DNA from: Candidatus Peregrinibacteria bacterium
GTDB taxonomy: Bacteria > Patescibacteriota > Gracilibacteria > UBA1369 > LOWO2-01-FULL-3
NCBI GenBank assembly: GCA_030688025.1
Contig: JAUYJL010000009.1
Coordinates: 1,503-65,502, forward strand
DNA: 64,000 nt
Direction: 5' to 3'
Shown here: piece after piece, positions 40,363-57,371 of the stretch
How the letters are laid out: the number at the start of each line of letters is the position of its first letter
Numbering within the stretch: position 1 is the first letter of the stretch
Made by a program: the position numbers and the translations under genes
The notes under the pieces: generated by a model
What the model saw: the letters and a program-made list of their open reading frames with translations, nothing else
Databases searched by the model: none
Told to the model about the DNA's origin: nothing

Positions 40363-40383
40363 AAAACAATAAAAGGATACATC

Positions 40384-41552: not shown

Positions 41553-41645
41553 GAAATTCAAAAAATATTTTCCTATAATTAAAGAGTTTTGATAGGCTCT
41601 TAGAAAATAACAAGCTTTATATAATCCACTAACAACATAAAAAAT

Positions 41646-42041: not shown

Positions 42042-42113
42042 GGGAAAATATTTTTTGAACTCGCTCCTTTCAGTCGCGCCCCGCTGCGCTCTCCTCCCTT
42101 TGGTCGTCGGGTC

Positions 42114-42226
42114 GGCTAACACTGCATAACAGGTTCGGCTCTTGCAGAGCCTCACCCAAATTGCGCAGGTGTGAGCCTTCGGCTATTATACACCTGCGCA
42201 ACTTCTGTTATGCAGGAACGTTATAT
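42114..42226 (+). other. attC 3 (R'' GGCTAAC ... R' GTTATAT)
   Basis: L'' CTGCATAACAGG pairs with L' TCTGTTATGCAG, and inner TTGCGCAGGTGT pairs with ACACCTGCGCAA. The R'-side spacer is GAAC. Confidence 0.85.
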
Positions 42227-42267
42227 GAAATGCTTTTGGGGCTAACTTTATTTGATACAATCAAAAC

Positions 42268-43182
42268 ATGAAATTTCAATTAACGGAACCGAACAAACAA
42301 TATTCAAATGCTGAACTCATAGAAGATATTCAAAGAGTTGCAGGTGAGCTCGGCAAAAATTCTGTATCCCAACGAGAATATGATCGATTGGGCAATTTTT
42401 CGTATCAGACATTCAAAAAGAGGTTCGGTTCCTGGAAAAGTGCATTAAAAGAAGCTGGGCTTGAACAAAGCAAGCGTCCTTGGGGTGGTGATTTAACAGA
42501 AACACGCATACCCAAAGAACAGCTTATTGCAGATATGAAAAGAGTTGCAGGCGAACTGGAAAAACAAGCTATCACAATTGCTGATTATGATAAGCATGGA
42601 AAGTTTGGCTCTTCGGCAATCTGTAAAAGATTTGGTGGCTGGAACAAGGCAAAAGAAGCAGCAAATCTGAAAATCGGAAGAGTTTATAATTCAACAGACG
42701 AAGACTATTTTGAAAACATAGCTGATGTTTGGGAACATCTTGGTCGCCAACCACGATATCAAGAAATGACAGCACCACTTTCAAAATTAAATATATCATC
42801 ATACGAGCGAAAATTTGGAACATGGCGAAATGCTCTCGAAAAATTTGTTGAATATATAAACTCTAAAGACGACGCCGAAGAGCCGCAAGAAGCAATCGAG
42901 CCAAAGAAATCAGCAATTGTTCCTAAAAAAGAAGAGAAACCAATAAAAAAGCAGGTGGTTAAAAAAAGAACCAACCGCATTGCAAATCTACGACAGAGAT
43001 TTAGAGTAATGAAAAGAGATGGTTTCAAATGTGTATTGTGTGGAAGTTCGCCAGCAACTCAAGTAGGCTGTGAATTGCATATAGATCACATCATACCTTG
43101 GAGTAAAGGTGGTGAAACTGTAGAGGAAAATTTAAGGACGCTTTGTTCAAGCTGTAATTTAGGAAGATCAAATAAAGAATAA
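42268..43182 (+). CDS. Cassette 4: HNH endonuclease with three N-terminal ~55-aa repeats
   Basis: C-terminal CVLCGS...HIDHIIPWSKGGETVEENLRTLCSSCN is an HNH motif. The N-terminus has three copies of ...(Q/D)YD(R/K)...(F/Y)...KRFGSWK(S/N)AL.EAGL-type repeats (homing-endonuclease-associated repeat). Confidence 0.85.
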   Translation: MKFQLTEPNKQYSNAELIEDIQRVAGELGKNSVSQREYDRLGNFSYQTFKKRFGSWKSALKEAGLEQSKRPWGGDLTETRIPKEQLIADMKRVAGELEKQAITIADYDKHGKFGSSAICKRFGGWNKAKEAANLKIGRVYNSTDEDYFENIADVWEHLGRQPRYQEMTAPLSKLNISSYERKFGTWRNALEKFVEYINSKDDAEEPQEAIEPKKSAIVPKKEEKPIKKQVVKKRTNRIANLRQRFRVMKRDGFKCVLCGSSPATQVGCELHIDHIIPWSKGGETVEENLRTLCSSCNLGRSNKE

Positions 43183-43204
43183 TGAACCGCCCCAAAAGCA
43201 CATC

Positions 43205-43282
43205 ATATAACAAGGCATATACGGCTACGCTACGCTTCGCCCATATTGCTATCGCAACATCGTATATGCCGAAACGTTAGCC
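43205..43282 (+). other. attC 4 (R'' ATATAAC ... R' GTTAGCC)
   Basis: L'' GGCATATACGG pairs with L' CGTATATGCC. The R'-side spacer is GAAAC. Length is 78 bp. Confidence 0.85.
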
Positions 43283-43326
43283 GAAATTGAAAGTAATTTT
43301 TTTATTCCTTTAACCAAAATCAAAAC

Positions 43327-43605
43327 ATGGAAAAGTATTTCATTTTAGCAATAACATTTGCATATAGCATCGGCGGTTTAGTCACATTCGCAGGATTTTT
43401 TCCAACAATGAAGGATTTATGGAAAGGAAAACCAAGTGCAAATGTGCACACCTACATAATTTGGTCGATAACAACCTTCCTTACATCTTTATATGCAATA
43501 TTTGTTGTCAAAGACTTGGTTTTCAGTTTGGTTATCAACCTACAATTAGCGGCATGTTTAATAGTTTTGATTTTGAGATTAAGGCTAAAATTAAAAAGAA
43601 CATAA
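43327..43605 (+). CDS. Cassette 5: small 3-TM membrane protein (92 aa; SemiSWEET/PQ-loop-like topology)
   Basis: Three hydrophobic helices in 92 aa. The family assignment is only a guess from topology. Confidence 0.45.
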   Translation: MEKYFILAITFAYSIGGLVTFAGFFPTMKDLWKGKPSANVHTYIIWSITTFLTSLYAIFVVKDLVFSLVINLQLAACLIVLILRLRLKLKRT

Positions 43606-43665
43606 AAAAATTACTTTCAACTCAAGGGGACGCTGCGCTTTCGCTCCCTTCAGTCGCTCACCCTC

Positions 43666-43783
43666 GGCTAACACTGAATGTGCGGTTCGCGGCTTGCAGC
43701 CGCTCTCCCATATTCACTGGCGGTGAATCGCTTTGCGATATATTATACCGCCAGTGAACATCGCACATTCAGAAACGTTAGGC
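43666..43783 (+). other. attC 5 (R'' GGCTAAC ... R' GTTAGGC)
   Basis: L'' CTGAATGTGCG pairs with L' CGCACATTCAG, and inner TTCACTGGCGGT pairs with ACCGCCAGTGAA. The R'-side spacer is AAAC. Confidence 0.85.
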
Positions 43784-43873
43784 GAAAGAAGAAAAAGCAT
43801 TTGTATTTTACAGTCGACTTGACAAGTCGCCAAAAAAAAGTATAAAGTAGAAAACTATTAACACATACTATTT

Positions 43874-44101: not shown

Positions 44102-44119
44102 ACCGCTTTTTCTTCCATC

Positions 44120-44245
44120 GCCTAACAATGAATAACTGGTTCACTCCTTCACTCCGTTCAGTCGTTCTCCCAAATTTGGCGGCGGTATGTCGCTCCGCTC
44201 CAAATTTTACCGCCACCACACTTCAGTTATTCATGGACGTTAGCT
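44120..44245 (+). other. attC 6 (R'' GCCTAAC ... R' GTTAGCT)
   Basis: L'' ATGAATAACTGG pairs with L' CAGTTATTCAT, and inner TTTGGCGGCGGT pairs with ACCGCCACCACA (imperfect). The R'-side spacer is GGAC. Confidence 0.85.
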
Positions 44246-44474
44246 GAAATATTCCTTTTCTTTTCTGGGCTATCGCCCAATTGTTTTAAAAAATTTTCAA
44301 ATTTCTTTTTCTTTTTTATAAGGGGAAATATGGAGTTTTCTCCGCTCTGCTACGAAAACACTTGTTTTGTAGAGGGGAATAGCGGTGTTTCCTCCGCTTC
44401 GCTCCAGAAACTCTTTATATATTAAGGGAAAAATACTATACTACCATTAACCCGCCTTTGAACATAAAAACCCT

Positions 44475-46535
44475 ATGGAAATTAATTTCAAAAGTAAATT
44501 ATTTGAACTACTAAAAAGAGACCATCGTCTTTGGAATGAAGAGACCAAGGAATTCAATGAAACTCTTTTAAAAGATTTAGTGGATAAGCTGGATGAAAAT
44601 ATCCTCGAGCTACTTTTTAATAACGCGGAAACAAAAGAACGATTTTTCATAAAAATAAAGGATGTTTATGTATTAAAGCAAAACGAGTTAAAATTTTTCA
44701 TTGATGAAAATAAATTAGACAATTCATTTACCCAGCTTGCCAATAAAATTGGCCTCACCATAGATGACAAAAAAGACGAAAGGGTTGTTTTGAACTGGCC
44801 ATTTAAGGATTGTGTATTAGAGGGCGGCATGACAAAAGAAGACGCTGTTGATGTTTATTATAAATTTGATAAAAAGACCGGCGAATGGAAAGAGGAGGCC
44901 GCAAAGAGAAAAGAAATTTTCTTTAATGAAGTTTTAGCTCGCGATGAAATAGACCGGCTTGAAGATCCAAAAACTCTTTATAAGTGGCGAAGATTTACTG
45001 CTGAAAATTCTGAAAATGGAGAAGAGTTAAAAGAAATAAAGAGAGACGAAAAAGGGATTATAAAGGAAAATTTTGTAATCAAAGGCAATAATCTACTTTC
45101 ATTACATAGCTTAAAATCTCAATTTGAAGGGAAAATAAAACTTATCTACATAGATCCCCCATTTAACACTGGTAAGGATGAATTCAAGTATAATGACAAC
45201 TTTAATCATTCTGCATGGCTAACTTTCATGAAAAACAGGCTAGCGGTAGCAAAAGAATTATTAAGAGATGACGGCGTAATTTTTGTACACATTGGCAATG
45301 AGGAAGCGGCATATATGCAAGTTTTATTAGATGAAATTTTTAACAGGGAAAATTATTTGAATCATATTACAATGAGTACTAATGCGGCATCTGGATTTAA
45401 AGCTACCAGTGCTAAAATATTTTCAACAGCAAACCATATTTTTGTTTATGCCAAAAAAGCAGATAAGGGGTATTTGAATAAGTTATATACAAGAAAAGAA
45501 TATGATGATAGTTACGGATATTATTTACTAAATCCAAGCGAACCATATTCAAGATGGAAGTACAAAAAAATTATTGAAATACTCGCCGAAGAAAATGGAT
45601 TTAAAGATGTGAAATCTTTTCAGAAAAGTTTCGCCAAAGAAATTATACTGGAAAAAATAAAAAAATTTGCACATCTAAATAAGGAAAGAGTATTCCGGAC
45701 TGCAGCATTAGGCGGAGGCGCACTTACGAAAAGAAAAGTCACTGTAGAAAAATCCAAAAAAGAAAAAGGGGTTGTTCTCCAACATCCAAATGAAGACGTG
45801 AAAGGTTTTTATATTTTAAATGGAGAACAGATCGTTTTTTGGTCAAATACCTATAAAGAAATTGATGGAGATATTGTGCCAGCAACATCCCTCACAGATG
45901 TATGGACTGACATCGGTTTTACTGGAATCGCAAATGAGGGTGGTATAACCTTAAAAAATGGCAAAAAACCTGAACCTCTCCTTAAAAGGATAATTGAATT
46001 AGGATCAAGCGAAAATGATATAGTACTTGATTTCTTCGCTGGCAGTGGAACCACTTGCGCGGTGGCCCATAAAATGGGACGACAGTGGATTGCCATCGAA
46101 CAACTTGATTATTCTGATAATAACCCTGAGGAAAGAATGAAAGGGGTCATTGCTGGCGATCCTACTGGAATTTCCAAAACAATAAATTGGAAGGGTGGAG
46201 GTGACTTTATTTACACGCAACTGGCAAAATGGAATGAAGAGGCAAAAGAAAAAATTTCTGAAGCAAAATCTTATGATGAGTTAGTGAAGCTATTTTCATT
46301 GCTCTATGAAAAATATTTCCTAAATTATAATGTGCGAGCAAAAGATTTTAAAGAAAGCATAATAGAAAACAATGAATTCAAAAAACTTTCACTCGAAAGA
46401 CAAAAGGAAATATTTGGAAAAATGCTCGATCTAAACCAGATGTACATAAATTTCAGTGAAAGGAATGATAAAAAATATGAGCTAACATCAAGAGATATAG
46501 AACTCAGTGAAAAATTTTATAATGTGAAAAATTAA
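44475..46535 (+). CDS. mod: Cassette 7: Type III restriction-modification methyltransferase (Mod)
   Basis: LIYIDPPFNTGKDEF (motif IV, DPPF) precedes DFFAGSGTTCAVAHKMGRQWIAIE (motif I), a beta-class order typical of Type III Mod. The res gene follows immediately. Confidence 0.88.
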   Translation: MEINFKSKLFELLKRDHRLWNEETKEFNETLLKDLVDKLDENILELLFNNAETKERFFIKIKDVYVLKQNELKFFIDENKLDNSFTQLANKIGLTIDDKKDERVVLNWPFKDCVLEGGMTKEDAVDVYYKFDKKTGEWKEEAAKRKEIFFNEVLARDEIDRLEDPKTLYKWRRFTAENSENGEELKEIKRDEKGIIKENFVIKGNNLLSLHSLKSQFEGKIKLIYIDPPFNTGKDEFKYNDNFNHSAWLTFMKNRLAVAKELLRDDGVIFVHIGNEEAAYMQVLLDEIFNRENYLNHITMSTNAASGFKATSAKIFSTANHIFVYAKKADKGYLNKLYTRKEYDDSYGYYLLNPSEPYSRWKYKKIIEILAEENGFKDVKSFQKSFAKEIILEKIKKFAHLNKERVFRTAALGGGALTKRKVTVEKSKKEKGVVLQHPNEDVKGFYILNGEQIVFWSNTYKEIDGDIVPATSLTDVWTDIGFTGIANEGGITLKNGKKPEPLLKRIIELGSSENDIVLDFFAGSGTTCAVAHKMGRQWIAIEQLDYSDNNPEERMKGVIAGDPTGISKTINWKGGGDFIYTQLAKWNEEAKEKISEAKSYDELVKLFSLLYEKYFLNYNVRAKDFKESIIENNEFKKLSLERQKEIFGKMLDLNQMYINFSERNDKKYELTSRDIELSEKFYNVKN

Positions 46536-46537
46536 GT

Positions 46538-49321
46538 ATGAATGAGCAAAATTTACAACAGCTCATTGAATCAGAAATAGGTCGAAAGACCATTTCGAAA
46601 ATAGATTTGCCTGAATACATCACTACTAATTTAAGGCACGATTTTTGGTATTGGCAAAAAGAAGCATTGCAATATTTTTTTGCATTTGATGATCCTGTAT
46701 ACGAATTTGAGAAAATAGTGAATGAGCCAACTCACTTGATGTTTAACATGGCGACCGGCACAGGCAAAACCATGCTCATGGGAGCACTGATTTTATATTA
46801 CTACACAAAGGGTTATAAACACTTCATTTTCTTTGTAAACCAAAATAACATTGTAGATAAAACGGAAAATAATTTTATCAATAAAAGCCACACTAAATAT
46901 ATTTTCAGGCAGAGGACAGTAATAGATGACAAGACAATCAATATCCGCAAAGTTGAAACTTTTGACGAAACTGATGACATTCAAATTAAATTTGTTTCAA
47001 TTCATAAGCTTCACAACGATGTCTATTTAGCAAAAGAAAATTCCTTAACACTTCAGGAATTACAGACAAGAGATTTAGTCATGATCGGAGACGAAGCACA
47101 TCATTTTAACGCTTCCACAATAAAGAATGGCCAAACAGAAATTGAATTACCAACAGAACTAAAAGAGAATGCCAGTGATAAAGATATTGAGAAAAGCTGG
47201 GAAGATACGGTTTTAAATAAGATTTTGAGAAAAGGAAAAAGTAAACAAGATGTCGAGAATAAAAATGTTTTACTGGAATTTACTGCAACCATTCCTAAAA
47301 ATACAGATGTTATTGAAAAATACCACACAAAGATTATATATAAATTTGAACTCGTTGATTTTTTAAAGGCGGGATATACAAAGGAAATAAACTTAGTATC
47401 CACATCACTGAAAAAGAAAGAGAAAATTTTATTATCCTTGCTTTTTAATTGGTACCGTCATCAGATTGCACTAAAAAATAACATACCAAATTTTAAGCCA
47501 GTCATTCTTTTCAGAAGTAAACTTATTGAAGAATCAGAAAAAGATTATCAGGAATTTTGTTCAATTATTTCAAAACTAAATCCCTCAGATTTTGATTTCT
47601 TAAAAACTGTTGAGGATAGTATAAAACAAGATCAGGACAGTCTATTTAAAGTTTATGAACAAGGAAAAAGTCGCGTAAAGCAGCTTTTGCAGTTTATTAA
47701 GGACGAAAAAATCAACATTCGCCAGATACTGGATTACTTACAATCAGAATTTTCTGAAAAAAATTGCATTATTACGAACTCAAAAGATAACAATGCAACT
47801 ACTAAAGAAAAAACCTCAGAAGAGCAGGAGCAACTACTAAACAGCTTAGAAGATAAAAATAATCATACCCGTGCAATTTTTACGGTAAAACGACTTACTG
47901 AGGGCTGGGATGTATTAAATCTCTTTGATATAGTTAGACTCTATGAAGGAAGAGATGAGGGGCATAAAAACGGTAAAAGAATTGCCGGTCAAGCAACGAC
48001 TCAAGAAATACAACTAATCGGGCGTGGAGTCCGTTATTTCCCCTTTTCTTACAATGAGCATGAAAAAAACAAAAGAAAATTTGACAATGATTTAGAAAAT
48101 CCCCTCAGAGTTTTGGAAGAGTTTTATTATCACAGTGGAGGCGGTGATTTAGAAAAAGAACGCAGATATATTGATGAATTAAAACGAGAACTTAAAAATA
48201 AAGGATATATTCAAGAGAATAGATCACCAAAGAAATTTAGTTTGAAAGAAGAGTTTAAACAAACAGCTTTTTTTAGAGAGATAAAAGTGTGGAAGAATGA
48301 AAGAATAGAGAATCCGGAAAGGCGCCGACATACACTAACGGAATTGCAAAAGAATTTTATTTTTGAGTACAAAACAAAAGATTTGTCGTTAAGTGAGCAA
48401 CGTGTTGTTTTCGATAATGAGGTCGACGAAATGCTTGCTGAAAGTAAAAGTACAGAGAGAAAAACCTTAAACGTAAAAATTTCAGAGTTTGAAAAACATA
48501 TTGTATGGAAAGCTATAAACAGAAAAGCAAAAAAAGATTTATCGATTTTGCGCTTTGATAATTTGAAAGATGAATTGGATATTAAAAGTATTGATGAAAT
48601 TTTCTCCGATAATCTTCTTGGGGAATTTAAGGTAAATATTATTGTTTCAAAAACTAAAAATGGGTTCTCCGAAATAGATAACAAGGAAAAATTAGAAATA
48701 CTACTTTCCTTTTTTGATGAATTTACCAAGAAGCTAAAAGAAATTGCTAATCCATTCAAAGGAACAATGGATTTTATGCCGTTTTCATTTGGTCAACTTT
48801 TTGGCGAGGAAAAAAAGAAAAATGTGCTTATCGACGAAGAGAGTAAGGCTCTTGAGGTAGAGTTACTCCAACACAAATGGTATGTTTTAGACGGGTTTAA
48901 TGGAACAAGTGAGGAAAGAGATTTAATTGAATTTTTCAAAAACAAATTTGGCAATCTTGAAGAAAAATATGACGAAATTTATCTGCTCAGAAACGAGGAG
49001 GTATATAAACTCTATGATTTTGAACAGGGACGTGGATTTGAGCCAGATTTTTTACTTTTCCTGAAAGGTAAGGAAGGAAATTTATATTTCCAAGTATTTA
49101 TTGAGCCAAAAGGTAGTCAATTTACAGATAAAGAAGGTGGTTTCAAGGAAAGCAAAGAAGGATGGAAGGAAGAATTTTTACAACAAATTACAGATAAATA
49201 TGGCACTGGCAACTTATTAAAAGTAGAAAGTAAAAACTACAAATTGATCGGATTACCTTTATTCAACAAGCAAGAAGAACATTCCTTTGATACAGAATTT
49301 AGTAATCTGCTATTAAAATAG
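46538..49321 (+). CDS. res: Cassette 7: Type III restriction enzyme Res subunit (SF2 helicase-nuclease)
   Basis: Walker A is MATGTGKT and the DEAH box is MIGDEAHHF. Helicase motif VI-like QLIGRGVR is present, as is a C-terminal nuclease-like EPDFLLF...IEPKG (PD-ExK). Confidence 0.88.
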   Translation: MNEQNLQQLIESEIGRKTISKIDLPEYITTNLRHDFWYWQKEALQYFFAFDDPVYEFEKIVNEPTHLMFNMATGTGKTMLMGALILYYYTKGYKHFIFFVNQNNIVDKTENNFINKSHTKYIFRQRTVIDDKTINIRKVETFDETDDIQIKFVSIHKLHNDVYLAKENSLTLQELQTRDLVMIGDEAHHFNASTIKNGQTEIELPTELKENASDKDIEKSWEDTVLNKILRKGKSKQDVENKNVLLEFTATIPKNTDVIEKYHTKIIYKFELVDFLKAGYTKEINLVSTSLKKKEKILLSLLFNWYRHQIALKNNIPNFKPVILFRSKLIEESEKDYQEFCSIISKLNPSDFDFLKTVEDSIKQDQDSLFKVYEQGKSRVKQLLQFIKDEKINIRQILDYLQSEFSEKNCIITNSKDNNATTKEKTSEEQEQLLNSLEDKNNHTRAIFTVKRLTEGWDVLNLFDIVRLYEGRDEGHKNGKRIAGQATTQEIQLIGRGVRYFPFSYNEHEKNKRKFDNDLENPLRVLEEFYYHSGGGDLEKERRYIDELKRELKNKGYIQENRSPKKFSLKEEFKQTAFFREIKVWKNERIENPERRRHTLTELQKNFIFEYKTKDLSLSEQRVVFDNEVDEMLAESKSTERKTLNVKISEFEKHIVWKAINRKAKKDLSILRFDNLKDELDIKSIDEIFSDNLLGEFKVNIIVSKTKNGFSEIDNKEKLEILLSFFDEFTKKLKEIANPFKGTMDFMPFSFGQLFGEEKKKNVLIDEESKALEVELLQHKWYVLDGFNGTSEERDLIEFFKNKFGNLEEKYDEIYLLRNEEVYKLYDFEQGRGFEPDFLLFLKGKEGNLYFQVFIEPKGSQFTDKEGGFKESKEGWKEEFLQQITDKYGTGNLLKVESKNYKLIGLPLFNKQEEHSFDTEFSNLLLK

Positions 49322-49324
49322 GAA

Positions 49325-49379
49325 GTTTTCGGTCGGGGCAATTCACCCCTTTAGTTCCCCTCTTGCCCCTCCCTCAAAC
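49325..49379. repeat. Conserved-loop hairpin H1 (degenerate copy)
   Basis: GTTTTCGGTCGGGGCAA - TTCACCCCTTTAGTTCCCCTC - TTGCCCCTCCCTCAAAC, with 13/17 stem pairs. Confidence 0.6.
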
Positions 49380-49390
49380 AAGAAATAGGT

Positions 49391-49445
49391 GTTTTGGGTG
49401 GCGGGCATTCACCCCTTTAATTCCCCTCTGCCCACCACCCAAAAC
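49391..49445. repeat. Conserved-loop hairpin H2
   Basis: GTTTTGGGTGGCGGGCA - TTCACCCCTTTAATTCCCCTC - TGCCCACCACCCAAAAC, with 16/17 stem pairs. Confidence 0.75.
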
Positions 49446-49509
49446 GGAAAAAGAAATTTGAAAATTTTTAAAACAACCGACTATCGACGGAAAAGAAAAG
49501 GAATACATC

Positions 49510-49636
49510 AGCTAACACTGCGTATGCGGTTACGGCTTGCTCCGTACCTCCGCAAGCCTCCACCCATATTTGCCAGTGGTAAGCACTTCGTGCAATTATA
49601 CCACTGGCAAACATCGCATACGCAGGGACGTTATGT
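49510..49636 (+). other. attC 7 (R'' AGCTAAC ... R' GTTATGT)
   Basis: L'' TGCGTATGCG pairs with L' CGCATACGCA, and inner TTTGCCAGTGGT pairs perfectly with ACCACTGGCAAA. The R'-side spacer is GGGAC. Confidence 0.88.
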
Positions 49637-49666
49637 GAAATAGACTTTACTACCTAAGTGCAAAAT

Positions 49667-50437
49667 ATGACAAACGATCAAACTAAAAAATTCTACGATG
49701 AACTATCGGCTGATTATCATTTGATTTTCGGTAATTGGGATAATGCAATAAAAAGACAATCAAAAATTTTAGATAACATTATCCAAAAATATTCAAAAAA
49801 CGAATCAAAAACGTTATTGGATTGTTCTTGCGGGATAGGAACACAAGCCATTGGATTAGCGAATCTTGGATATAAAGTTCATGCAACAGATTTAAGTCCA
49901 AAAGCAATTGTGAGAGCCAGATTAGAAGCAAACAAAAGGGGTGTTTCAATATCTTTCGATGTTGCCGATTTCAAGAAATTAGAAGATCAAGTTGAAGGAA
50001 CTTTTGATATTGTCATTTCTTGTGATAATTCATTACCACATTTATTAACAGACGAAGAATTGCTTTTGGCTGCAAAAAATATTCTTTCTAAAATGAAATC
50101 CAATAGCTTGTTTATCGCAAGCATCAGAGATTATGACCAACTTTTGGAAGACAAACCAATTAGCACTCAACCAAACGTAAAAGATTTTACAAAGGAAAGA
50201 ACAATTTCTTTTCAAGTGTGGGATTGGGATGAAAATAATGTTTATACTGTTAATCATTTTACTCTGAAAGGAATTAATGAAAAATTTGATACGTTTTTGA
50301 GAACAACTAAATATAGAGCATATAAACGCGATGAAATGTCTAAAATTTTTAAAGAAGCAGGATTTATCGAAATCAAATGGTTAATGCCGAATGAATCAGA
50401 ATACTATCAGCCGATAATAATTGCGTTGAAACCGTAA
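49667..50437 (+). CDS. Cassette 8: class I SAM-dependent methyltransferase (small-molecule type)
   Basis: LLDCSCGIGTQAIGLANLGYKVHATDLS (motif I and the post-I acidic residue). The start is set at ATG 49667 (MTNDQ) rather than GTG 49658. Confidence 0.8.
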   Translation: MTNDQTKKFYDELSADYHLIFGNWDNAIKRQSKILDNIIQKYSKNESKTLLDCSCGIGTQAIGLANLGYKVHATDLSPKAIVRARLEANKRGVSISFDVADFKKLEDQVEGTFDIVISCDNSLPHLLTDEELLLAAKNILSKMKSNSLFIASIRDYDQLLEDKPISTQPNVKDFTKERTISFQVWDWDENNVYTVNHFTLKGINEKFDTFLRTTKYRAYKRDEMSKIFKEAGFIEIKWLMPNESEYYQPIIIALKP

Positions 50438-50449
50438 AGTCTACATCAC

Positions 50450-50591
50450 ATAACACGGTATATGGGGTTCAGAAAATTTCACTCAAAAGATTTAAAAGGA
50501 ATGTGAAATTTTCTTCTCCCAAATTTGCCTCACACTATTGATAAAAATTAAGGAGTTCGGCAAACTTCCCATATACCGAAACGTTGTGCGA
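50450..50591 (+). other. attC 8 (R'' ACATAAC ... R' GTTGTGC)
   Basis: L'' CGGTATATGGG pairs with L' CCCATATACCG. An inner hairpin is GAAAATTTCAC...GTGAAATTTTC. The R'-side spacer is AAAC. Length is 142 bp. Confidence 0.85.
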
Positions 50592-50761
50592 AATATTTTT
50601 CAATATTTTTTCTTTAATAAGGAATTTTTGTTGAAGAATTTAAAAAAGGATGGAATTTTTATTTTAATGAGGGGGATATAATGTATTTTTTGCTCCGTTC
50701 CTCCGCAAAAAATGGATTTAATATTTAATGGAAAATCAGTATAATACCACTGTAAAACACT

Positions 50762-51598
50762 ATGGCTAAAAAAACTCAATCAAAAAGATTAACGAATCAG
50801 CATAAAAAATCTCAAGGTGTAGTCGGTATATTCTGTAACGAAGCAAAGTTACATGATAAAACGGTTTGTAAAATTTCATACCTTGTAATTGAACAACTTA
50901 AAAAGGAACTTCCTCAGTTATCTTTTAGATATAGAACGTGTATAAAAAAGGAAGAAATAAACAAAGCGTTAAAGAAAATTGATCCAGAATTGGGGCAAAC
51001 CCTTTTTGTGCCAAATTCAAGTATTATTCCAGATGGTGGTATAATTGAAGTAAAAGATGATAGTGGTAATTGGAGAGTAGTACTTGTAACAGAAGCTAAA
51101 CATCAAGGAAAAGACATTGAAAATATACAAATAGGAAATCTAGTTGGTAAAAATAACAATCAAGACTTAATGGCTGCTGGCAATGCCATAGAAAGATCGC
51201 ATAAAAACATATCAGAAATTGCCAACTTTATGCTATATGAATCCCATTTCCCCTATATCTTATTCCTGGAAGGATCAAATTTTCTTACTAAAACTATTTC
51301 AATTAAAAGACCTGACGGAAGAGTGGTTACTCTTAATTATAACTCAGGCATGTTAAATAGATTGGATAGATTAACTTGTGCAAATTATGGAATGCCAATT
51401 AACACTAATTTATGTAAAAATAAATTTGTTAAACATAAAGATAAAACGATTATGCTTCAAGCAGCTTCAATTTTTACACAAGGAAATGGAGGAAAGTGGG
51501 ATGTAAAAGAAATGTTTGATATTATGATTGAAATTTCAAAAACCTCTCTTCAAGTATTAGGAAGTGAAATATTTAAACAAATAACCAAGCGAAAATAA
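50762..51598 (+). CDS. Cassette 9: EcoRI-family Type II restriction endonuclease
   Basis: Near-colinear similarity, from memory, to R.EcoRI. This includes PQLSFRYR, IIPDGGIIEVKDD, WRVVLVTEAKHQGKDI (catalytic D...E-A-K), QDLMAAGNAIERSHKNISEIANFM, FLEGSNFLT, YGMPIN and IMLQAASI. Length is 278 aa versus 277 aa for EcoRI. Confidence 0.88.
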   Translation: MAKKTQSKRLTNQHKKSQGVVGIFCNEAKLHDKTVCKISYLVIEQLKKELPQLSFRYRTCIKKEEINKALKKIDPELGQTLFVPNSSIIPDGGIIEVKDDSGNWRVVLVTEAKHQGKDIENIQIGNLVGKNNNQDLMAAGNAIERSHKNISEIANFMLYESHFPYILFLEGSNFLTKTISIKRPDGRVVTLNYNSGMLNRLDRLTCANYGMPINTNLCKNKFVKHKDKTIMLQAASIFTQGNGGKWDVKEMFDIMIEISKTSLQVLGSEIFKQITKRK

Positions 51599-51627
51599 GA
51601 GATTTATTCATTTAACATAATCTGATA

Positions 51628-52683
51628 ATGGCAAGAAATGCAACAAACAAATTATTGCAAAAAGCTAAGGAATCAAAGAGTGATGAGTTTTACACTCAAC
51701 TTTCAGATATAGAAAGTGAATTGCAACACTACAAAGGTCATTTTAAGGACAAAGTGGTTTTTTGTAATTGCGATGACCCTAAAATTAGCAACTTCTTTAA
51801 CTATTTTGCTTCAAACTTCAAAGAGTTGGGATTAAAAAAAATAATAGCTTCTTGTCATAGAAAACAAGAAAGAAATTTATTTAATACTAAAGAATTTGAA
51901 AGTGGTTATTTTTATGAATATTCAGGTGCTCCGGGAGAAAAAATAAACCCAAGTTCAAATGACATGATTCATTTTAAAGGAGATGGCGATTTTCGCAGCA
52001 CTGAAAGCATTGAACTATTAAAACAATCCGATATTATTGTTACTAATCCACCATTTTCGTTATTCAGGGATTTCGTAGGTCAATTGGTAAAATATGATAA
52101 AAAATTTTTGATAATAGGCAACGTTAATGCTATTACCTATAAAGAAATTTTTAAATTAATTAAGAAAAACAAGGCGTGGCTAGGAATAAATCTAGGTAGA
52201 GGTATTTCAGGTTTTATTGTACCAGAACATTACGAGCTTTACGGAACGGAAGCTCGTATCGATAGTCTTGGAAATAGAATAATCTCCCCAAATAACTGTT
52301 TATGGCTAACTAATTTAGACACATCCAAAAGGCACGAAGACATTATTCTTACAAAGAGATATTTTGGAAACGAAATTGATTATCCCCGTTACGATAACTA
52401 TGATGGAATTAATATAGATAAAACAAAAGATATTCCTTTAGATTATGCAGGCGTTATGGGAGTACCAATAACCTTTTTACATAAATACAATTCAGAGCAG
52501 TTTGAAATCATTAAATTTAGAAAAGGAAATGATGAGAAAGATTTGTCAGTAAACGGGAAATGTCCTTATTTTAGAATCTTAATCAGAAATAAACGCATAC
52601 AGAAGACTGGCAGTTGTCATGCAAGAATTGCAACAGATCAATGTCAGGAATATAAAATGATACCAATACAAACTTTATTATGA
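51628..52683 (+). CDS. Cassette 9: EcoRI-family N6-adenine DNA methyltransferase
   Basis: MARNATNKLL..SKSDEFYTQ, CNCDDP, GDGDFRS, IIVTNPPFSLF (motif IV NPPF), YDKKFLIIGNVN, GFIVPEHYELYGTEARID, NNCLWLTNLD, GVMGVPITFLHK and CPYFRILI all follow M.EcoRI as I remember it. There is an extra ~25-aa tail. Confidence 0.88.
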   Translation: MARNATNKLLQKAKESKSDEFYTQLSDIESELQHYKGHFKDKVVFCNCDDPKISNFFNYFASNFKELGLKKIIASCHRKQERNLFNTKEFESGYFYEYSGAPGEKINPSSNDMIHFKGDGDFRSTESIELLKQSDIIVTNPPFSLFRDFVGQLVKYDKKFLIIGNVNAITYKEIFKLIKKNKAWLGINLGRGISGFIVPEHYELYGTEARIDSLGNRIISPNNCLWLTNLDTSKRHEDIILTKRYFGNEIDYPRYDNYDGINIDKTKDIPLDYAGVMGVPITFLHKYNSEQFEIIKFRKGNDEKDLSVNGKCPYFRILIRNKRIQKTGSCHARIATDQCQEYKMIPIQTLL

Positions 52684-54176
52684 TAAAGACAATAACCATC
52701 CAAAATTTTAGAGGTATAAGGGAACTAAAAGATTTTGAACTCAAAAATCTTTCATTGCTTGTTGGTGAAAATGGAACAAGTAAAACCTCTATTTTAGAAG
52801 CGATAAATTTTTGTCTTTCTCCTTATTTTATATCTGGAAGAATTAAACATACAGATTTTTACAAAGGTGAAGATATTGAGATAAAAATTATTTTGGAATT
52901 TGATGAAAATTTCAAAGTCTTTTTGCCTGATGGCTATACCAAACAAGAGGTTGAGTGCAATAAGGTTTGTTTAGAAATAAAAAAAAGAGATAGGGCGACT
53001 CCCAAAAAGGCATTTTCGGACATTGTTGTTGTTTCTCATTATGTTTTACCAAGCAAAGAAAAAGATAATGAAAATGGTTGGGAGATAACACGAGGAACGG
53101 GATCAAAATTTAAATTTGATGAAAGACGGTTGTCTTTTCCTTTGGAGTCAGAAGGGCTACCAAAAAGTTTTTATTTTCCAAAAAACCGAGAAAAACAATT
53201 GCAGAGAGGCTTTAATTCTTCTATTTCTTCAGTTTTTGATGACTTTAATTGGAGATTCAATAAAGAAGTAAGAAAAATTGAAACAGAAGAAAATTTTAGT
53301 GGAGAAAAATTTACATCTCAAAAAAATAATTTTGAATCAAGTATTTTAGAAAAAATTGATGAACAATCACAACAAAAGACATTCCAGACACTAAACGAAA
53401 AACTGGAAAAAGTAGGTTTACCAAAAGCTGATCTTTCACTAATTGATTGCAATGCGCCTTTTGACAATGCTTTTCTTTCTCAAAAATTAGAATGTTTAGA
53501 CTTGCCTATATCTCAACTTGGGTCAGGTGTTGAAATGGTTGTTTCTTTATTGTTTTTAGAAACAATGGCAGAAATTTCAAAAGAAAATATCTTGATTTTA
53601 ATTGATGAACCAGAGCTACACCTACACCCAGATTTACAAAATAATTTTATTGATCACATAGTATCAATTTCTGAAAAAAATCAATTTCTATTTTCTACTC
53701 ACTCCCCACTTTTCGTTAAACAAACATTAAATAATGAAAATGGAAAAATTCAAATTCATTGTTTGGAAAAAGAAAATGGAGAAGTAAAAATTTTAGAATT
53801 AGAAAAAAGAGTTTTGCCGTATGTTTCAGCTAACGAAGTAAATTTTATTGCTTTTGGGTTAGCAACAGAAGAATATCACAATGAACTTTATAATGAGATT
53901 GAAATAAATTTTTGGAATGATCCAGATAATGATTTTAAAACATTGAAACAAAACGGAAGTTATGACAATAATGACTGTCGTCAAATTATTTTTGATAACG
54001 AATTTTTCTCAAAATTTAAACAAGAACAAATAGATAGTCCTTTTAGGACTACTCAAAATAAAGTAACAATCCACACCTACATTAGAAATAGAATTCATCA
54101 CTCTAAAGAAAATGGAGAAAGTCCAACAACACAAGAATTAAAACAATCCATAGAGAAAATGCGAGGATTTCTTTAA
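52680..54176 (+). CDS. Cassette 9: ABC/OLD-like (AAA_15/21-type) ATPase with a non-TOPRIM C-terminal domain
   Basis: Walker A GENGTSKTS, Walker B ILILIDEPELHLHP and H-loop FSTHSP. The ~115-aa C-terminus has no DxD/TOPRIM motif but contains RNRIHH (an Rx4H pattern). The start codon overlaps the methyltransferase stop (ATGA). Confidence 0.75.
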   Translation: MIKTITIQNFRGIRELKDFELKNLSLLVGENGTSKTSILEAINFCLSPYFISGRIKHTDFYKGEDIEIKIILEFDENFKVFLPDGYTKQEVECNKVCLEIKKRDRATPKKAFSDIVVVSHYVLPSKEKDNENGWEITRGTGSKFKFDERRLSFPLESEGLPKSFYFPKNREKQLQRGFNSSISSVFDDFNWRFNKEVRKIETEENFSGEKFTSQKNNFESSILEKIDEQSQQKTFQTLNEKLEKVGLPKADLSLIDCNAPFDNAFLSQKLECLDLPISQLGSGVEMVVSLLFLETMAEISKENILILIDEPELHLHPDLQNNFIDHIVSISEKNQFLFSTHSPLFVKQTLNNENGKIQIHCLEKENGEVKILELEKRVLPYVSANEVNFIAFGLATEEYHNELYNEIEINFWNDPDNDFKTLKQNGSYDNNDCRQIIFDNEFFSKFKQEQIDSPFRTTQNKVTIHTYIRNRIHHSKENGESPTTQELKQSIEKMRGFL

Positions 54177-54182
54177 TAAGGT

Positions 54183-54231
54183 GTTTTTCTTTTTCCAATT
54201 CACCCCTAACCCCTCTTGGAAAAAGAAAAAC
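54183..54231. repeat. Conserved-loop hairpin H3
   Basis: GTTTTTCTTTTTCCAA - TTCACCCCTAACCCCTC - TTGGAAAAAGAAAAAC, a perfect 16-bp stem. Confidence 0.75.
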
Positions 54232-54308
54232 GAAAAATAAAAATTCCAAATAGAAATAAAATTCTTCAACAAAAGAATAAGGAATGAAAAAATATTGAAA
54301 AATACATC

Positions 54309-54435
54309 GCACAACAACTCATATCTGGCTCAAGAAATTGACACATTAATATTTCAAAGGAAAGTCAATTTCTTTCGACCCAAATTTTTGCTTCACTACG
54401 TTTTGCAAAAACTTCAGATATGAGTAACGTTAGCC
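54309..54435 (+). other. attC 9 (R'' GCACAAC ... R' GTTAGCC)
   Basis: L'' CTCATATCTGG pairs with L' CAGATATGAG. An inner hairpin is GAAATTGAC...GTCAATTTC. The R'-side spacer is TAAC. Confidence 0.85.
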
Positions 54436-54662
54436 GAAATACATTTTTACTATTCCCTTTTTGTCGCTCCGCTTTTCGGACTTTTAATAAGGAGGGGCGA
54501 ATTGATTCTTTATTTTTAGAGGGGGGGGCTGTCTGCCTTTGGCAGCCAGTAAGGTATTTTCTTGCTCCCTTCGGTCGCTACGAAAAATTTAGAATTATTT
54601 TAGAAATATTTAATAATTGCATGATATAATCACTACGAAATTTTAAATAAATCAGAATAAAT

Positions 54663-56255
54663 ATGAACACAACAGAACAAAACGAATTATTAAGTATTCA
54701 AGAAGCAAGCACATGGGCTAGCTCATTTTTGAAGCGCGTCGTTACAGAAAGCAACATTTCATATCTAATTCAGTATGGCAGAGTTAGAAAAATTGGAGAA
54801 AATGGCACAACTCAAATAATAAAAGCAGATTTACTTAGATATTACGAAAAAAGTCGCCCTAGTCGTGAAATATCATGGAAAAAAACGCTTGGAGATGACT
54901 TAAACTGGTCTTTATCTTTTGAACAATATAGAGAATCTGAAACCACAAAGCATGTTCATCGGTTACATCCATACAAAGGAAAATACATTCCTCAACTTGT
55001 TGAGTATTTTTTAGACGATCACACGGATAATTTTAAGAAACAAACTTATTTTAAAAAGGGTGACATCATTCTTGATCCATTTTGTGGAAGTGGAACAACG
55101 CTTGTGCAAGCAAATGAATTGGGTATGCACTCAATCGGGATAGATATTTCCGCCTTCAATTCCTTAATTTCAAACATTAAAATTGGAAAACATGACTTTG
55201 AAGAACTCACCCTGGTAATTAAGCAAATTACTAACAACTTGGAAAAAATTTTAAAGGACGCACACGCAATAGATTTTGAATCAGAACTATTAAAAGAGCT
55301 AAATCAATTCAATTCAAAAAATTTCCCCTCTCCGGAATTTAAGTACAAAATACGCCAAGGACAGGTTGATGAAAGAAAATTTGGAAGCGAAAAAGAAAAA
55401 GAATTTCTGAAAATTTACGATACATTGGTCAAAAAGTATGGAATTAAATTAAAACAACAAAAAAATGAAACATTCTTAGATAAATGGTATCTACAAGCAA
55501 TCAGAGATGAAATAAATTTCATGTTTGAGCAAATTAAGCAAATCAAAAATCCAGACATCAAAAAAGTAATAAGTGTTATTTTAAGCCGTACTATCAGATC
55601 TTGCCGTGCAACAACCCATTCAGATTTAGCAACGCTCAAGGAGCCACAAATAACAACTTATTATTGCAAAAAGCACGGGAAAATGTGCAAACCTCTTTTT
55701 TCAATTTTGAGCTGGTGGAAGCGATATGCTCAAGACACAATGTATAGGTTTAAACAATTCGAAAAATTACGAACTGATACAAAACAAATTTGCTTAACAG
55801 GTGATTCAAGAGAAATAGATATTTTTGGAGAACTAGATAACCGTTATCCCGATTTTGCTAAAATCGTAAAAACTCAAAAGATTAAAGGTATTTTTTCTTC
55901 ACCTCCTTATGTTGGATTGATTGATTATCACGAACAACATGCCTACGCCTATGATCTCTTCGGATTTAAGCGCAAAGACGAATCTGAAATAGGCCCGCTT
56001 TTTCGAGGACAAGGATTAGAAGCAAGAAAAAGCTATATTGAAGGGATTTCATCTGTACTGCTAAATTGCAAAAAATTTCTAGCAGATGATTTCTCCATAT
56101 TTTTAGTAGCCAATGATAAATGGGGTATGTATCCTGAAATTGCTAAAAAAGCAGGACTAAAAATTGTTGAAGAATTTAAAAGACCCGTTTTAAACCGTAC
56201 CGAAAAAGACAAAGGAGCGTATTCAGAGATAATTTTTCACTTAAAAAATAATTAA
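54663..56255 (+). CDS. Cassette 10: DNA methyltransferase (N4-C/N6-A amino-methyltransferase, SPPY motif, alpha-like order)
   Basis: ILDPFCGSGTTLVQANELGMHSIGIDIS (motif I) lies about 270 aa before IFSSPPYVGLIDY (motif IV). The N-terminal segment LSIQEASTWAS... looks like a small HTH. Confidence 0.82.
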   Translation: MNTTEQNELLSIQEASTWASSFLKRVVTESNISYLIQYGRVRKIGENGTTQIIKADLLRYYEKSRPSREISWKKTLGDDLNWSLSFEQYRESETTKHVHRLHPYKGKYIPQLVEYFLDDHTDNFKKQTYFKKGDIILDPFCGSGTTLVQANELGMHSIGIDISAFNSLISNIKIGKHDFEELTLVIKQITNNLEKILKDAHAIDFESELLKELNQFNSKNFPSPEFKYKIRQGQVDERKFGSEKEKEFLKIYDTLVKKYGIKLKQQKNETFLDKWYLQAIRDEINFMFEQIKQIKNPDIKKVISVILSRTIRSCRATTHSDLATLKEPQITTYYCKKHGKMCKPLFSILSWWKRYAQDTMYRFKQFEKLRTDTKQICLTGDSREIDIFGELDNRYPDFAKIVKTQKIKGIFSSPPYVGLIDYHEQHAYAYDLFGFKRKDESEIGPLFRGQGLEARKSYIEGISSVLLNCKKFLADDFSIFLVANDKWGMYPEIAKKAGLKIVEEFKRPVLNRTEKDKGAYSEIIFHLKNN

Positions 56256-56256
56256 T

Positions 56257-57054
56257 ATGGCACTATCAAAAGATTTACAACAGAAGGTTTATGAATTTCT
56301 AAAGGGGAAAATCCTTAAAAAAATTGATGAATACAACTTGAGCGATGAAGACTCATCAAAACCTTTTCAATATGCTCTTTTTACAAAAAAGGGTTACTTG
56401 GCTAAAGGATTTATTCATGGATGTGAAACAGCACTTGGAAATTGGCACGAAACCATAGCGAAAATTATTGCCACTGAAAATTTTGCAACTGCAAATAAAT
56501 TACAAGGACAAAACAAATTAAAAGGTAAAATCACAAGAGAGGCACAAAGAACATCTGAAAATATTTTAAGTGATCTTGATAGCGTTAAGAGAGAACCAAA
56601 TCACAAGTCAGAGTCAGAAGAAATTTTTAATGCTAGCCAAAACCTCGAACAAACAGAGGACAGAATACAAACTGTTGATCTCTACCTAGAAACAAAAGAC
56701 GGTGAAGAAATTTATTTTGAAATAAAGGGACCTAAGCCAAATAAAAACGAAATGAGAGCAGCAAAAAGAGATTTGCTAGAAATATATGCAATGAGATCAG
56801 CGGAAGGCAAGAAAGTAAAAATTTATTTAGGCATGTACTACAACCCATATTATCCCGAAGAGTACCAAAGATGGACATGTATAAAATTCTTTGATAAAGG
56901 TAATGACTTTCTTATTGGCAAAGACTTTTGGGACTTTTTAGGCGGAAACGGAGCTTATGAGGAATTAATTGATATTTATGAAAAAGTCGGAGAAAAAATA
57001 AGACCAGTGCTAGATCAAAAGTTCAAGGACATTGCAAAAAATCAAGAAGAATAA
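56257..57054 (+). CDS. Cassette 10: PD-(D/E)xK Type II restriction endonuclease (family uncertain, possibly TdeIII-like)
   Basis: VDLYLETKDGEEIYFEIKGPKPN fits D-Xn-E-X-K. The gene starts 2 nt after the methyltransferase stop. The family name is only a recollection. Confidence 0.6.
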   Translation: MALSKDLQQKVYEFLKGKILKKIDEYNLSDEDSSKPFQYALFTKKGYLAKGFIHGCETALGNWHETIAKIIATENFATANKLQGQNKLKGKITREAQRTSENILSDLDSVKREPNHKSESEEIFNASQNLEQTEDRIQTVDLYLETKDGEEIYFEIKGPKPNKNEMRAAKRDLLEIYAMRSAEGKKVKIYLGMYYNPYYPEEYQRWTCIKFFDKGNDFLIGKDFWDFLGGNGAYEELIDIYEKVGEKIRPVLDQKFKDIAKNQEE

Positions 57055-57057
57055 AGT

Positions 57058-57106
57058 GTTTTGGCTCGGGCAATTCACCCCCGGCCCCTCTTGCCCTCGC
57101 CAAAAC
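57058..57106. repeat. Conserved-loop hairpin H4
   Basis: GTTTTGGCTCGGGCAA - TTCACCCCCGGCCCCTC - TTGCCCTCGCCAAAAC, with 14/16 stem pairs. Confidence 0.7.
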
Positions 57107-57238
57107 AGAATCAATTCGCCCCTTATAAATAAGTGAAAAGCGGTCGTGACATCGGGAATAGTAAAAATGTACTTCGTTCGGTCGCTACGCTCCCTCCGAC
57201 CACGCTGCGCTCTCGCTCCACTGCGTTACGCTCGGGTC

Positions 57239-57371
57239 GGCTAACACAGCATAACAGGTTCGGGGCTCGGCTCGCCCCTCACCCAAATTGCTTGTTCGCT
57301 TAGGCGGTGCACTCCGTGCTATTATACCGCCACGCTCACTTCGCAACTTCTGTTATGCTGGAACGTTAGCT
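57239..57371 (+). other. attC 10 (R'' GGCTAAC ... R' GTTAGCT)
   Basis: L'' CAGCATAACAGG pairs with L' TCTGTTATGCTG. The R'-side spacer is GAAC. It is closely related to attC 3. Confidence 0.85.

Follow-up and report, generated by a model that had tools for sequence, protein, structure and literature searches.

Paired leader and tail arms at the cassette ends of an integron-like array in Candidatus Peregrinibacteria

A 64,000-nt stretch from a chromosome of Candidatus Peregrinibacteria, a lineage belonging to the candidate phyla radiation (CPR), was analysed (contig JAUYJL010000009.1 of assembly GCA_030688025.1, positions 1,503 to 65,502 of the forward strand; hereafter the window, in whose own numbering all positions are given). 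It carries an integron-like array of ten cassettes (C1 to C10, 39791-57365), which is read rightwards from junction 39790, lies beside the divergent gene of an Xer-like tyrosine recombinase, and is followed by purH. The question raised by this locus is why the start of each cassette (leader) is complementary to the sequence upstream of that cassette's own attC site (tail), and what such split inverted repeats may do. The leader-tail arms are a real and general feature of CPR arrays, and uncertainty concerns mainly their function, not their existence. The split palindrome bears on how CPR cassettes are recognised and made.

Cassette boundaries and pairing of the cassette ends

Cassettes were delimited by the junctions GTTRRRY-GAAAT at 39790 (attI), 40494, 41546, 42220, 43276, 43777, 44239, 49630, 50583, 54429 and 57365; after GTTRRRY all of them read GAAAT except one, which reads GAAAG. 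The first six bases of each cassette (TTRRRY) are the exact reverse complement of RYYYAA in its own R'' (10/10), and this match is the integron-type signature of a predicted strand exchange between G and TT. The ten attC sites, 77-142 nt long, are imperfect palindromes of the form R''(RYYYAAC)-L''...L'-R'(GTTRRRY), for which about 57-141 nt is the usual range, with paired R and L boxes, a 1-nt/4-nt unpaired spacer and an inner stem. Their folds contain the asymmetric spacer and a large one-sided C-rich bulge of 25-30 nt instead of the two canonical extrahelical bases. Two loci from other genomes (L087 and L088; L numbers denote loci) have a common recombinase and attI, and their sequences part exactly after G|TT (...CGCATAGAAACGAG|TT). 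This divergence is direct comparative evidence of apparent cassette turnover at G|TT, and it supports independently the boundaries, which the arms confirm as well, as an earlier note on this DNA had stated.

To measure leader-tail complementarity, the 150 nt that follow R' were aligned with the reverse-complemented 150 nt that precede R'' for all 100 leader/tail combinations. Own pairs of C1 to C10 scored 41, 49, 50, 25, 40, 22, 70, 27, 55 and 72, and the 90 mismatched pairs gave a mean of 18.3 (sd 3.2, maximum 30); the z-scores of own pairs against shuffled tails were 2.8 to 28.9. The own pairs of C6, C8 and C4 are the weakest, with 11, 9 and 12 perfect bp respectively (and in C4 a distal 11-mer besides), and yet are in exact register. 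The earlier note's claim of an inverted-repeat relation between each leader and the tail of the same cassette was thus borne out in all ten cassettes, own pairs being clearly better than mismatched and shuffled ones, which excludes chance complementarity. Its coordinates for the arms of C2, C7, C9 and C10 were right to within a few bases (Table 1), and the arm of C8 does take in the stop codon of the open reading frame (ORF), TAA at 50435-50437.

The pairing is not continuous with the R box, whereas the earlier note had let the complementarity start right at GAAAT. The 5 nt that follow R' (GAAAT) and precede R'' (ACATC at most sites) are conserved across cassettes and paired at three of five positions; the other two hold A·A and A·C on the top strand, and T·T and a wobble T·G on the bottom strand. 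Beyond this 5-nt step the arms are perfect for 9-19 nt beside the site and extend to 68-88 nt in C7, C9 and C10; their distal portions contain indels and mismatches. In C3, C5 and C10 a conserved C-rich module (54, 45 and 63 nt; ..CGCTGCGCTCTC..TCGGGTC) lies between tail arm and R''. Such cassettes are called class B; the module is also found in L133, L137, L056 and L084, and the tail arm of class-B cassettes of relatives lies 56-100 nt upstream of R''. The position of the tail arm directly upstream of R'', as first described, was therefore retained for the other cassettes but not for these three, in which it is displaced by the length of the module. The class-B module could be an accessory binding site or an element of strand asymmetry.

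For 20 class-A cassettes of the window and of relatives, the perfect run was counted in register from directly after the 5-nt step. Own pairs had a median run of 12 nt, with at least 8 nt in 18 of the 20, and the 380 mismatched pairs had a mean of 1.8 nt and a maximum of 7 nt. The arms might be taken for random matches in AT-rich, low-complexity DNA, as the G+C content of the region is just 30-39% and A/T-rich arms are common. With z-scores of up to 29, own scores far above those of mismatched and shuffled pairs, and none of the 380 mismatched pairs reaching 8 perfect nt in register, this explanation was rejected and is given practically no weight.

Arm length increases with cassette length (Spearman 0.58, p = 0.002, n = 26, uncorrected for shared ancestry of long-arm modules). 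The three long-arm cassettes are all restriction-modification (R-M) units: C7 encodes a type III system (Mod and Res), C9 the EcoRI endonuclease and methylase and an AAA_15 ATPase, and C10 an N6/N4 methyltransferase and a TdeIII-type endonuclease. Among the small cassettes, C4 encodes an HNH endonuclease, C8 an S-adenosylmethionine (SAM) methyltransferase, and others several proteins without assigned function.

Folded forms and the role of the arms

Two kinds of junction were folded as single-stranded DNA (ssDNA): a circular junction, composed of tail, attC and the cassette's own leader, and an array junction, composed of tail, attC and the next leader. In these predicted folds the circular junction was more stable than the array junction by 15-45 kcal/mol in 10 of 10 cassettes, and the bottom strand folded more stably than the top strand, again in all ten. 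The circular junction of C7 reached -93.8 kcal/mol (z = -14.7), compared with -49.3 kcal/mol (z = -5.1) for its array junction. The total palindrome measures about 268 nt in C7, 278 nt in C9 and, with the inserted module counted, 366 nt in C10. These results agree with the geometry put forward earlier, in which the arms abut attC only after circularisation of the cassette; the resulting palindrome of about 270-370 nt compares with 77-142 nt for attC itself.

The unit reads tail arm - ACATC - R'' - L'' ... L' - R' - GAAAT - leader arm, and the cassette is a circular permutation of it. The strand-exchange point (G|TT of R') sits within the 3' half of the palindrome. We consider it probable that the crossover occurs inside a long cassette-specific palindrome which integration splits, and that the re-paired arms clamp the R arm for an Xer-type enzyme. 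A crossover within the palindrome would leave TTRRRY-GAAAT-leader arm at the 5' end of the integrated cassette. The arms would re-pair upon excision, or whenever the two ends of a cassette meet in single-stranded DNA, and the re-paired arms may clamp the R arm, bring the two flanking sites together, or both.

Clamping of the R arm of the folded site would be the most likely task. The arms bound by tyrosine recombinases are typically about 11-13 bp long. Here such an arm, read from the cleavage point outward, would comprise TT-RRRY-GAAAT, roughly 12 nt, and its outer 5 nt, paired at three positions, would fray without at least 8-9 closing bp. The outer R arm would be duplex only if closed by further pairing, which would explain the at least about 9 perfect bp beyond it in each cassette. 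In classical integrases, the IntI-specific domain allows a short hairpin to be read through extrahelical bases; a recombinase without this domain, such as that of the array, therefore probably needs a more duplex-like site. The different recombination substrate suggested in the earlier note is plausible on this ground rather than proven. Since the clamp exists only while a cassette's own ends are joined, it would favour the cassette in its excised and folded state, from which insertion at attI would proceed.

Several observations weigh against this proposal. The evidence that the recombinase acts on these sites is comparative (cassette turnover, and the same cassette ends in distant genomes). 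Arm mismatches show no bias between G·T and A·C (13 vs 15), so that the folding strand, and even the choice between DNA and RNA, is left unspecified by the sequence. The distal indels and mismatches are as expected of decaying relics. The correlation of arm length with cassette length is not obviously predicted by a hairpin in a free circle; it is also phylogenetically non-independent, because the three long-arm cassettes may share descent. Finally, pairing has been lost in a chimeric array (L041) and in L176 with no obvious consequence.

Whole small cassettes together with both flanking sites were also folded as ssDNA. The minimum-energy structures contained 13-47 leader-tail pairs, and the cross R box (R' of the upstream junction with the cassette's R'') was paired at 7/7 positions in 10 of 12, with both L stems intact; the leader-tail stem and this trans R box thereby juxtapose the two flanking sites. 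The cis R box is poorly paired in the array, because its R' comes from the next cassette. These folds would suit pairing within the array, in which leader and tail loop out the cassette from single-stranded array DNA before excision, the perfect trans R box sets the flanking attC hairpins side by side, and precise excision is promoted or directed; long cassettes would need long arms, in line with the length correlation. We nevertheless judge it unlikely that this is what the arms are for. The whole cassette, up to 5.4 kb, would have to be single-stranded at once, and of the two sites that must be cleaved for excision just one would be double-stranded in this structure. The details of minimum-energy predictions for ssDNA of about 1 kb are unreliable, and the correlation may stem from the shared ancestry of long-arm modules.

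Because the arms lie in 5' and 3' untranslated ends, pairing in the transcript was considered as well, either as a processing stalk by which the mRNA of each cassette is freed from a polycistronic transcript, comparable to that of ribosomal RNA precursors, or as a closed loop for stability or translation. Long-arm cassettes hold further conserved hairpins in leader and tail, and these, like the arms, are on the coding strand throughout. The arms are, on the other hand, locked to the crossover register, abutting R boxes or the class-B module, the 5-nt step pairs better on the bottom strand, which also folds better in 10 of 10 cassettes, and G·U pairs are not enriched; an Rfam scan of 38-59 kb yielded nothing above noise. 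A role in RNA is accordingly thought very improbable. Promoters were rejected as an explanation of the arms, as promoter-like hexamers lie between the long arms and the start codons in C7, C9 and C10. A scan for promoters and terminators showed no enrichment over shuffles (65 vs 62 and 11 vs 10).

Related loci, cassette origin and surroundings of the array

Genome and metagenome collections were scanned, resulting in 160 loci (110 distinct loci for the attI count); cassettes of relatives were validated by the R-box rule only. Arrays with leader-tail pairing adjoin recombinases 45-88% identical to that of the window in other CPR genomes, so the pairing recurs in related arrays, with which the earlier note had proposed a comparison. 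In the closest relative (88% identity; L001/L002/L006) the order recombinase - array - purH is kept and the cassettes are entirely different, the first of them having arms of 10 + 24 bp. For 28 cassettes from outside the window (recombinases 45-68% identical) own scores had a median of 33, compared with 17.5±3.4 for the background, and in most cases the own pair ranked first among all pairings. Five consecutive cassettes with 8-16 perfect bp were found in L059 (recombinase 46% identical). Many contigs from metagenomes and metagenome-assembled genomes (L006-L165) stop 100-900 nt upstream of the recombinase gene. Such ends would be expected if assemblies fail at the repeats of attC arrays, and the cassette arrays of CPR are probably incompletely assembled.

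Long arms are laid out as 5-nt step - armA (about 15 nt) - small hairpin - armB (about 30 nt). Since leader and tail have different small hairpins, a four-way junction would form in the folded palindrome. Long-arm sequences recur at 72-95% identity in L008, L016/L102, L035, L041, L056, L078, L079, L094 and L139, where they accompany other cargo, often in the first cassette of the array. The long arms (65-90 nt) thus appear to be a conserved end-module of large defence cassettes that has spread between distant CPR lineages; travel of these modules with R-M cargo bears on the exchange of defence genes in tiny genomes.

Changes between related cassettes are matched on both sides of the palindrome. 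ArmA reads GCATGTTTTACTTT in L102 and ACATGTTTTCCTTT in L008, with the same form in leader and tail of each locus, and an A>T change between C10 and L137 is present on both arm sides. In the L180 array, which contains an orthologue of C4 (87% protein identity), the arms are kept and the R box is altered on both sides, TTATAT/ATATAAC in the window corresponding to TTAAGT/ACTTAAC. L041 has a C7-like leader without matching tail and a tail without matching leader; it is chimeric or decayed and was excluded from the covariation analysis. Selection for stable hairpins, the other suggestion of the earlier note, is supported by these compensatory substitutions, short of proof.

Conserved hairpins were also observed in the tails of the long-arm cassettes (49325-49379, 49391-49445, 54183-54231 and 57058-57106), with 29 copies in 17 loci. 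They have a C-rich loop TTCACCCC(n)CCCCTC, covarying stems of 15-17 bp and the flanks GTTTT..AAAAC, and always lie on the coding strand; no match in Rfam and no T-tail was found, so they are not T-tailed terminators. The leaders of the R-M cassettes (44318-44412, 50668-50713 and 54455-54600) contain a G box, AGAGGGGnAAnnnGGTG, complementary to the loop of the tail hairpin and followed by small hairpins with a loop resembling CTCCGCTTCGCTCC. This leader module heads first cassettes in distant CPR arrays (L008, L016, L056, L059, L079, L094 and L139).

The origin of the arms is best followed where they enter coding sequence. In C1, C3, C4 and C5 the final 11-24 nt of the ORF belong to the tail arm as well. 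Homologues of C4 that lie outside cassettes as ordinary genes (L181-L185) encode the same conserved C-terminus, GRSN(K/Q)E*; the distal arm of the C4 leader, CTTTATTTGAT, complements this ancestral coding sequence, and the leader is therefore the derived side. Since each leader matches its own tail and not that of its neighbour, the palindrome must have been built or maintained while the cassette was circular. A linear palindrome behind a gene, mobilised by two different sites, was discarded as a source, as the cassette would then carry the arm of its upstream neighbour and not its own. The HNH gene of C4 (42221-43276) itself occurs in three states: as an intact cassette (L180), with tail and attC present and the upstream junction lost (L176-L179), and as a non-cassette gene (L181-L185). 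This series should be useful for studying the transition from gene to cassette.

The arms could in part be relics of a templated birth. That they are nothing else, namely functionless remnants of a fold-back or template switch across the attC hairpin that copied the 3' end of the gene in inverted form, is in our estimate improbable. The complementarity of leader arms to ORF 3' ends in C1, C3, C4 and C5, the stop codon covered in C8, the ancestral coding end of C4 and the indels of the distal arms all fit such an event. Neutral inverted repeats would decay, however, and almost all cassettes pair without a mismatch over the proximal 9-19 bp, next to recombinases down to 45% identity; related cassettes differ by compensatory changes, and the long arms are conserved modules common to different cargo. 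Continuing constraint, as far as this may be read from sequence, is favoured by the mismatch-free proximal clamps, by the compensated substitutions and by conservation of the arms across deep CPR lineages.

As a tentative and rather doubtful extension, CPR may possess a widespread undescribed cassette platform run by an Xer-type recombinase without IntI domain, with the palindrome as substrate and the leader arms as the footprint of cassette birth by fold-back or template switch on an intermediate in circular or hairpin form. The complementarity of the leader to the 3' coding end makes one hypothesis of cassette genesis directly testable; if the leader is a templated copy of this end, the arrays would preserve a footprint of cassette birth, an open question for integrons generally. 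The arms also offer a model-free means to delimit cassettes and to spot decayed or fused ones in CPR genomes, where standard tools would call these arrays attC clusters without integrase.

Table 1. Coordinates of the recombinase gene, attI-like site, arms, class-B modules and attC sites in the window
Feature	Coordinates	Strand	Basis or remark
Xer-like tyrosine recombinase, 274 aa, divergent from array	38825..39649	-	Pfam Phage_integrase and SAM-like N-terminal domains
attI-like site	39735..39796	+	three TTCGYATA-type motifs, imperfect palindrome TTTCTATACGAA-AACAC-TTCGCATAGAAA, then CGA-G|TTAGCC
C1 leader arm	39801..39830	+	pairs with 40342-40379: 12 perfect bp, 8-nt gap, 18 perfect bp
C1 tail arm	40342..40379	+	distal 18 nt within ORF 3' end
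attC of C1, 117 nt	40384..40500	+	R-box rule, fold
C2 leader arm	40505..40552	+	alignment score 49; 40 paired nt
C2 tail arm	41428..41471	+	leader/tail alignment
attC of C2, 77 nt	41476..41552	+	R-box rule, fold
C3 leader arm	41557..41601	+	alignment score 50
C3 tail arm	42018..42059	+	overlaps last 24 nt of ORF; displaced from R''
Class-B C-rich module of C3	42060..42113	+	between tail arm and R''
attC of C3, 113 nt	42114..42226	+	R-box rule, fold
C4 (HNH endonuclease) leader arm	42231..42256	+	alignment; arm kept in orthologous cassette of L180, R box covaries
C4 tail arm	43167..43200	+	distal part is conserved coding 3' end (..SNKE*)
attC of C4, 78 nt	43205..43282	+	R-box rule
C5 leader arm	43287..43311	+	alignment score 40
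C5 tail arm	43595..43620	+	displaced from R''
Class-B module of C5	43621..43665	+	sequence, recurrence in relatives
attC of C5, 118 nt	43666..43783	+	R-box rule
C6 leader arm	43788..43798	+	11 perfect bp
C6 tail arm	44105..44115	+	leader/tail alignment
attC of C6, 126 nt	44120..44245	+	R-box rule
C7 (type III R-M) leader arm	44250..44317	+	armA, small hairpin TGGGCTATCGCCCA, armB
C7 tail arm	49441..49505	+	leader/tail alignment
attC of C7, 127 nt	49510..49636	+	R-box rule
C8 leader arm	49641..49650	+	9-10 bp
C8 tail arm	50434..50443	+	contains ORF stop codon
attC of C8, 142 nt	50448..50589	+	R-box rule
C9 (EcoRI R-M and AAA ATPase) leader arm	50594..50665	+	leader/tail alignment
C9 tail arm	54234..54304	+	leader/tail alignment
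attC of C9, 127 nt	54309..54435	+	R-box rule
C10 (methyltransferase and TdeIII-type endonuclease) leader arm	54436..54523	+	leader/tail alignment
C10 tail arm	57094..57175	+	displaced from R''
Class-B module of C10	57176..57238	+	recurrence in relatives
attC of C10, 133 nt, last site of the array	57239..57371	+	R-box rule

Past the last attC, the segment 57366-58231 contains a DsrE-like ORF (57533-57853) and an ORF of 98 aa, with no terminal attC before purH; it may be either a cassette whose site was lost or the original flank of attI. At about 61270-61410 a unit of about 33 nt (CCACGGATTACGCCTCATCCACTCCACCCTTGCT) is present in about four tandem copies. The GC skew (22000-54000) turns from negative to positive near 39 kb, at the boundary between recombinase and attI. 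Gene orientation and the foreign DNA of the cassettes act as confounders, and within the 64-kb window the skew is uninformative for origin, terminus or lagging strand.

The recombinase and comparison with known systems

Recognition of a folded single strand by a recombinase is textbook knowledge from integrons, where the IntI-specific domain is regarded as indispensable. The recombinase of the array has XerA_Arch as best NCBIfam model (213 bits, just under the cutoff of 220); it scores 188 bits with the integron integrase model TIGR02249 (cutoff 265) and lies far below the cutoffs of the XerC and XerD models. The best matches in PDB were XerC-like 4a8e and XerA 5hxy. Alignment with IntI1 leaves a gap of 41 aa exactly at the IntI-specific domain, and in a structure comparison residues 183-201 occupy the place of residues 183-244 of IntI4, so that the additional domain is lacking. 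The passage of PMC9668308 that cites Messier and Roy 2001 gives this domain, around patch III, as a defining and required feature of IntI. The protein is 100% identical to one from a Peregrinibacteria metagenome-assembled genome and shares about 60% identity with thousands of ~270-aa CPR proteins; members of this large family are usually annotated as XerC/XerD or 'integron integrase'. It corresponds to the 'Cand' subgroup of Xer-related recombinases from candidate phyla (Smyshlyaev et al. 2021, PMC8138268).

Junction 39790 lies 141 nt from the start of the recombinase gene and the array reads away from it, as expected of attI. The three TTCGYATA motifs of the attI-like site (direct, inverted, direct) form an imperfect 12-5-12 palindrome 3 nt off the crossover, and the motif TCGYATA is also present in the L' box of the attC sites. 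A dif site, by comparison, has an 11-6-11 duplex core and lies at the replication terminus. An attI-like ..TTCGCATAGAAACGAG|TTRRRY GAAAT was found upstream of the recombinase in about half of the 110 distinct CPR loci, and many contigs end at this point. No attI-like palindrome site was detected upstream of the recombinase homologue in a complete SR1 genome (L036).

Seven class 1 cassettes from four plasmids (L166-L170) and six cassettes of a betaproteobacterial chromosomal integron (L173; IntI 78% identical to IntI1, cassettes delimited by eye) were used as controls; L172, L174 and L175 were left out. In these 13 canonical cassettes the cassette-specific complementarity past the R box is 0-5 bp (e.g. 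ATCAC, CCCAC, GCCAG, GTCAG). With 100-nt flanks, own pairs of class 1 cassettes scored 10-14 compared with 13.7±2.2 for mismatched ones, i.e. background. Integrons thus appear ordinarily to have a short extension that brings the R-arm duplex to about 10-12 bp, and arms of 9-88 nt are specific to CPR arrays among those examined; the palindrome does exceed canonical attC, as the earlier note had stated. A further observation is the motif CTCGCTCCTTTCAGTCGC, which is present in CPR attC bulges and class-B modules (42060-42078, 43640-43657) and at the equivalent position in the attC sites of L173 (within 6304-6398, 8724-8818 and 9314-9408). This hints at common descent or at exchange of attC sequence between CPR and Proteobacteria.

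In the literature searched, no description was found of CPR cassette arrays, of attC complementarity extended this far, or of cassette arrays run by Xer; coverage was incomplete and novelty is accordingly unproven. The arms are not the ends of a miniature inverted-repeat transposable element or another transposon with terminal inverted repeats: they come to lie on either side of attC only through circular permutation, the sequence after each attC in the array is the next leader, and no duplications were seen.

The pdif modules of Acinetobacter plasmids are likewise small gene modules, thought to be moved by host Xer recombinases (PMC7399989). These differ from the array in having duplex XerC/XerD sites in inverted orientation, with no split-palindrome hairpin, G|TT rule or recombinase-side array. 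With archaeal XerA and the 'Cand' Xer proteins (PMC8138268), the enzyme of the array shares the simple two-domain structure of about 270 aa and best matches to XerA and XerC-like proteins. Those recombinases, however, are assumed to resolve chromosome dimers, and no link of theirs to cassette arrays was found in the literature searched.

The closest functional analogy for an Xer-type enzyme on a long folded hairpin is attP(+) of CTXphi. Both systems would combine an Xer-type enzyme with a long imperfect ssDNA hairpin mimicking a duplex core site. In the CTXphi type of integration of mobile elements exploiting Xer (IMEX), XerCD reportedly acts on the folded single-stranded attP(+) hairpin (Val et al. 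2005). As proposed for the array, circles without a recombinase of their own are said to integrate, and successive integrations to form arrays at one chromosomal site. CTXphi differs in being a replicating phage that inserts at dif, where chromosome dimers are resolved, whereas the CPR units are small cassettes with integron-type R and L boxes.

Classical integrons share most of the layout: an array beside a divergent tyrosine recombinase gene and an attI site, imperfect-palindrome sites R''-L''...L'-R' (77-142 nt in the window) with a crossover at G|TTRRRY, promoterless small cassettes amid defence and toxin-antitoxin-like cargo, and a bottom strand that folds more stably. Unlike in classical integrons, the CPR recombinase has no IntI-specific insertion, the R box is followed by the conserved mismatched step GAAAT/ACATC, complementarity runs on for 9-88 nt instead of 0-5 bp, attC has the C-rich bulge in place of two extrahelical bases, and some sites bear the extra module of 45-63 nt 5' of R''. 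The cassette logic of integrons (G|TT, R and L boxes, recombinase-side array) is thus found here with a simpler Xer-like enzyme and with duplex far beyond the R box. If the arms belong to the substrate, they would illustrate a way for a simple Xer-type enzyme to act on hairpin sites, and they may also mark an intermediate between Xer/dif systems and integrons. Because its recombinase lacks the IntI-specific domain, the system is not classed as an integron in the strict sense, though it is integron-like in its working.

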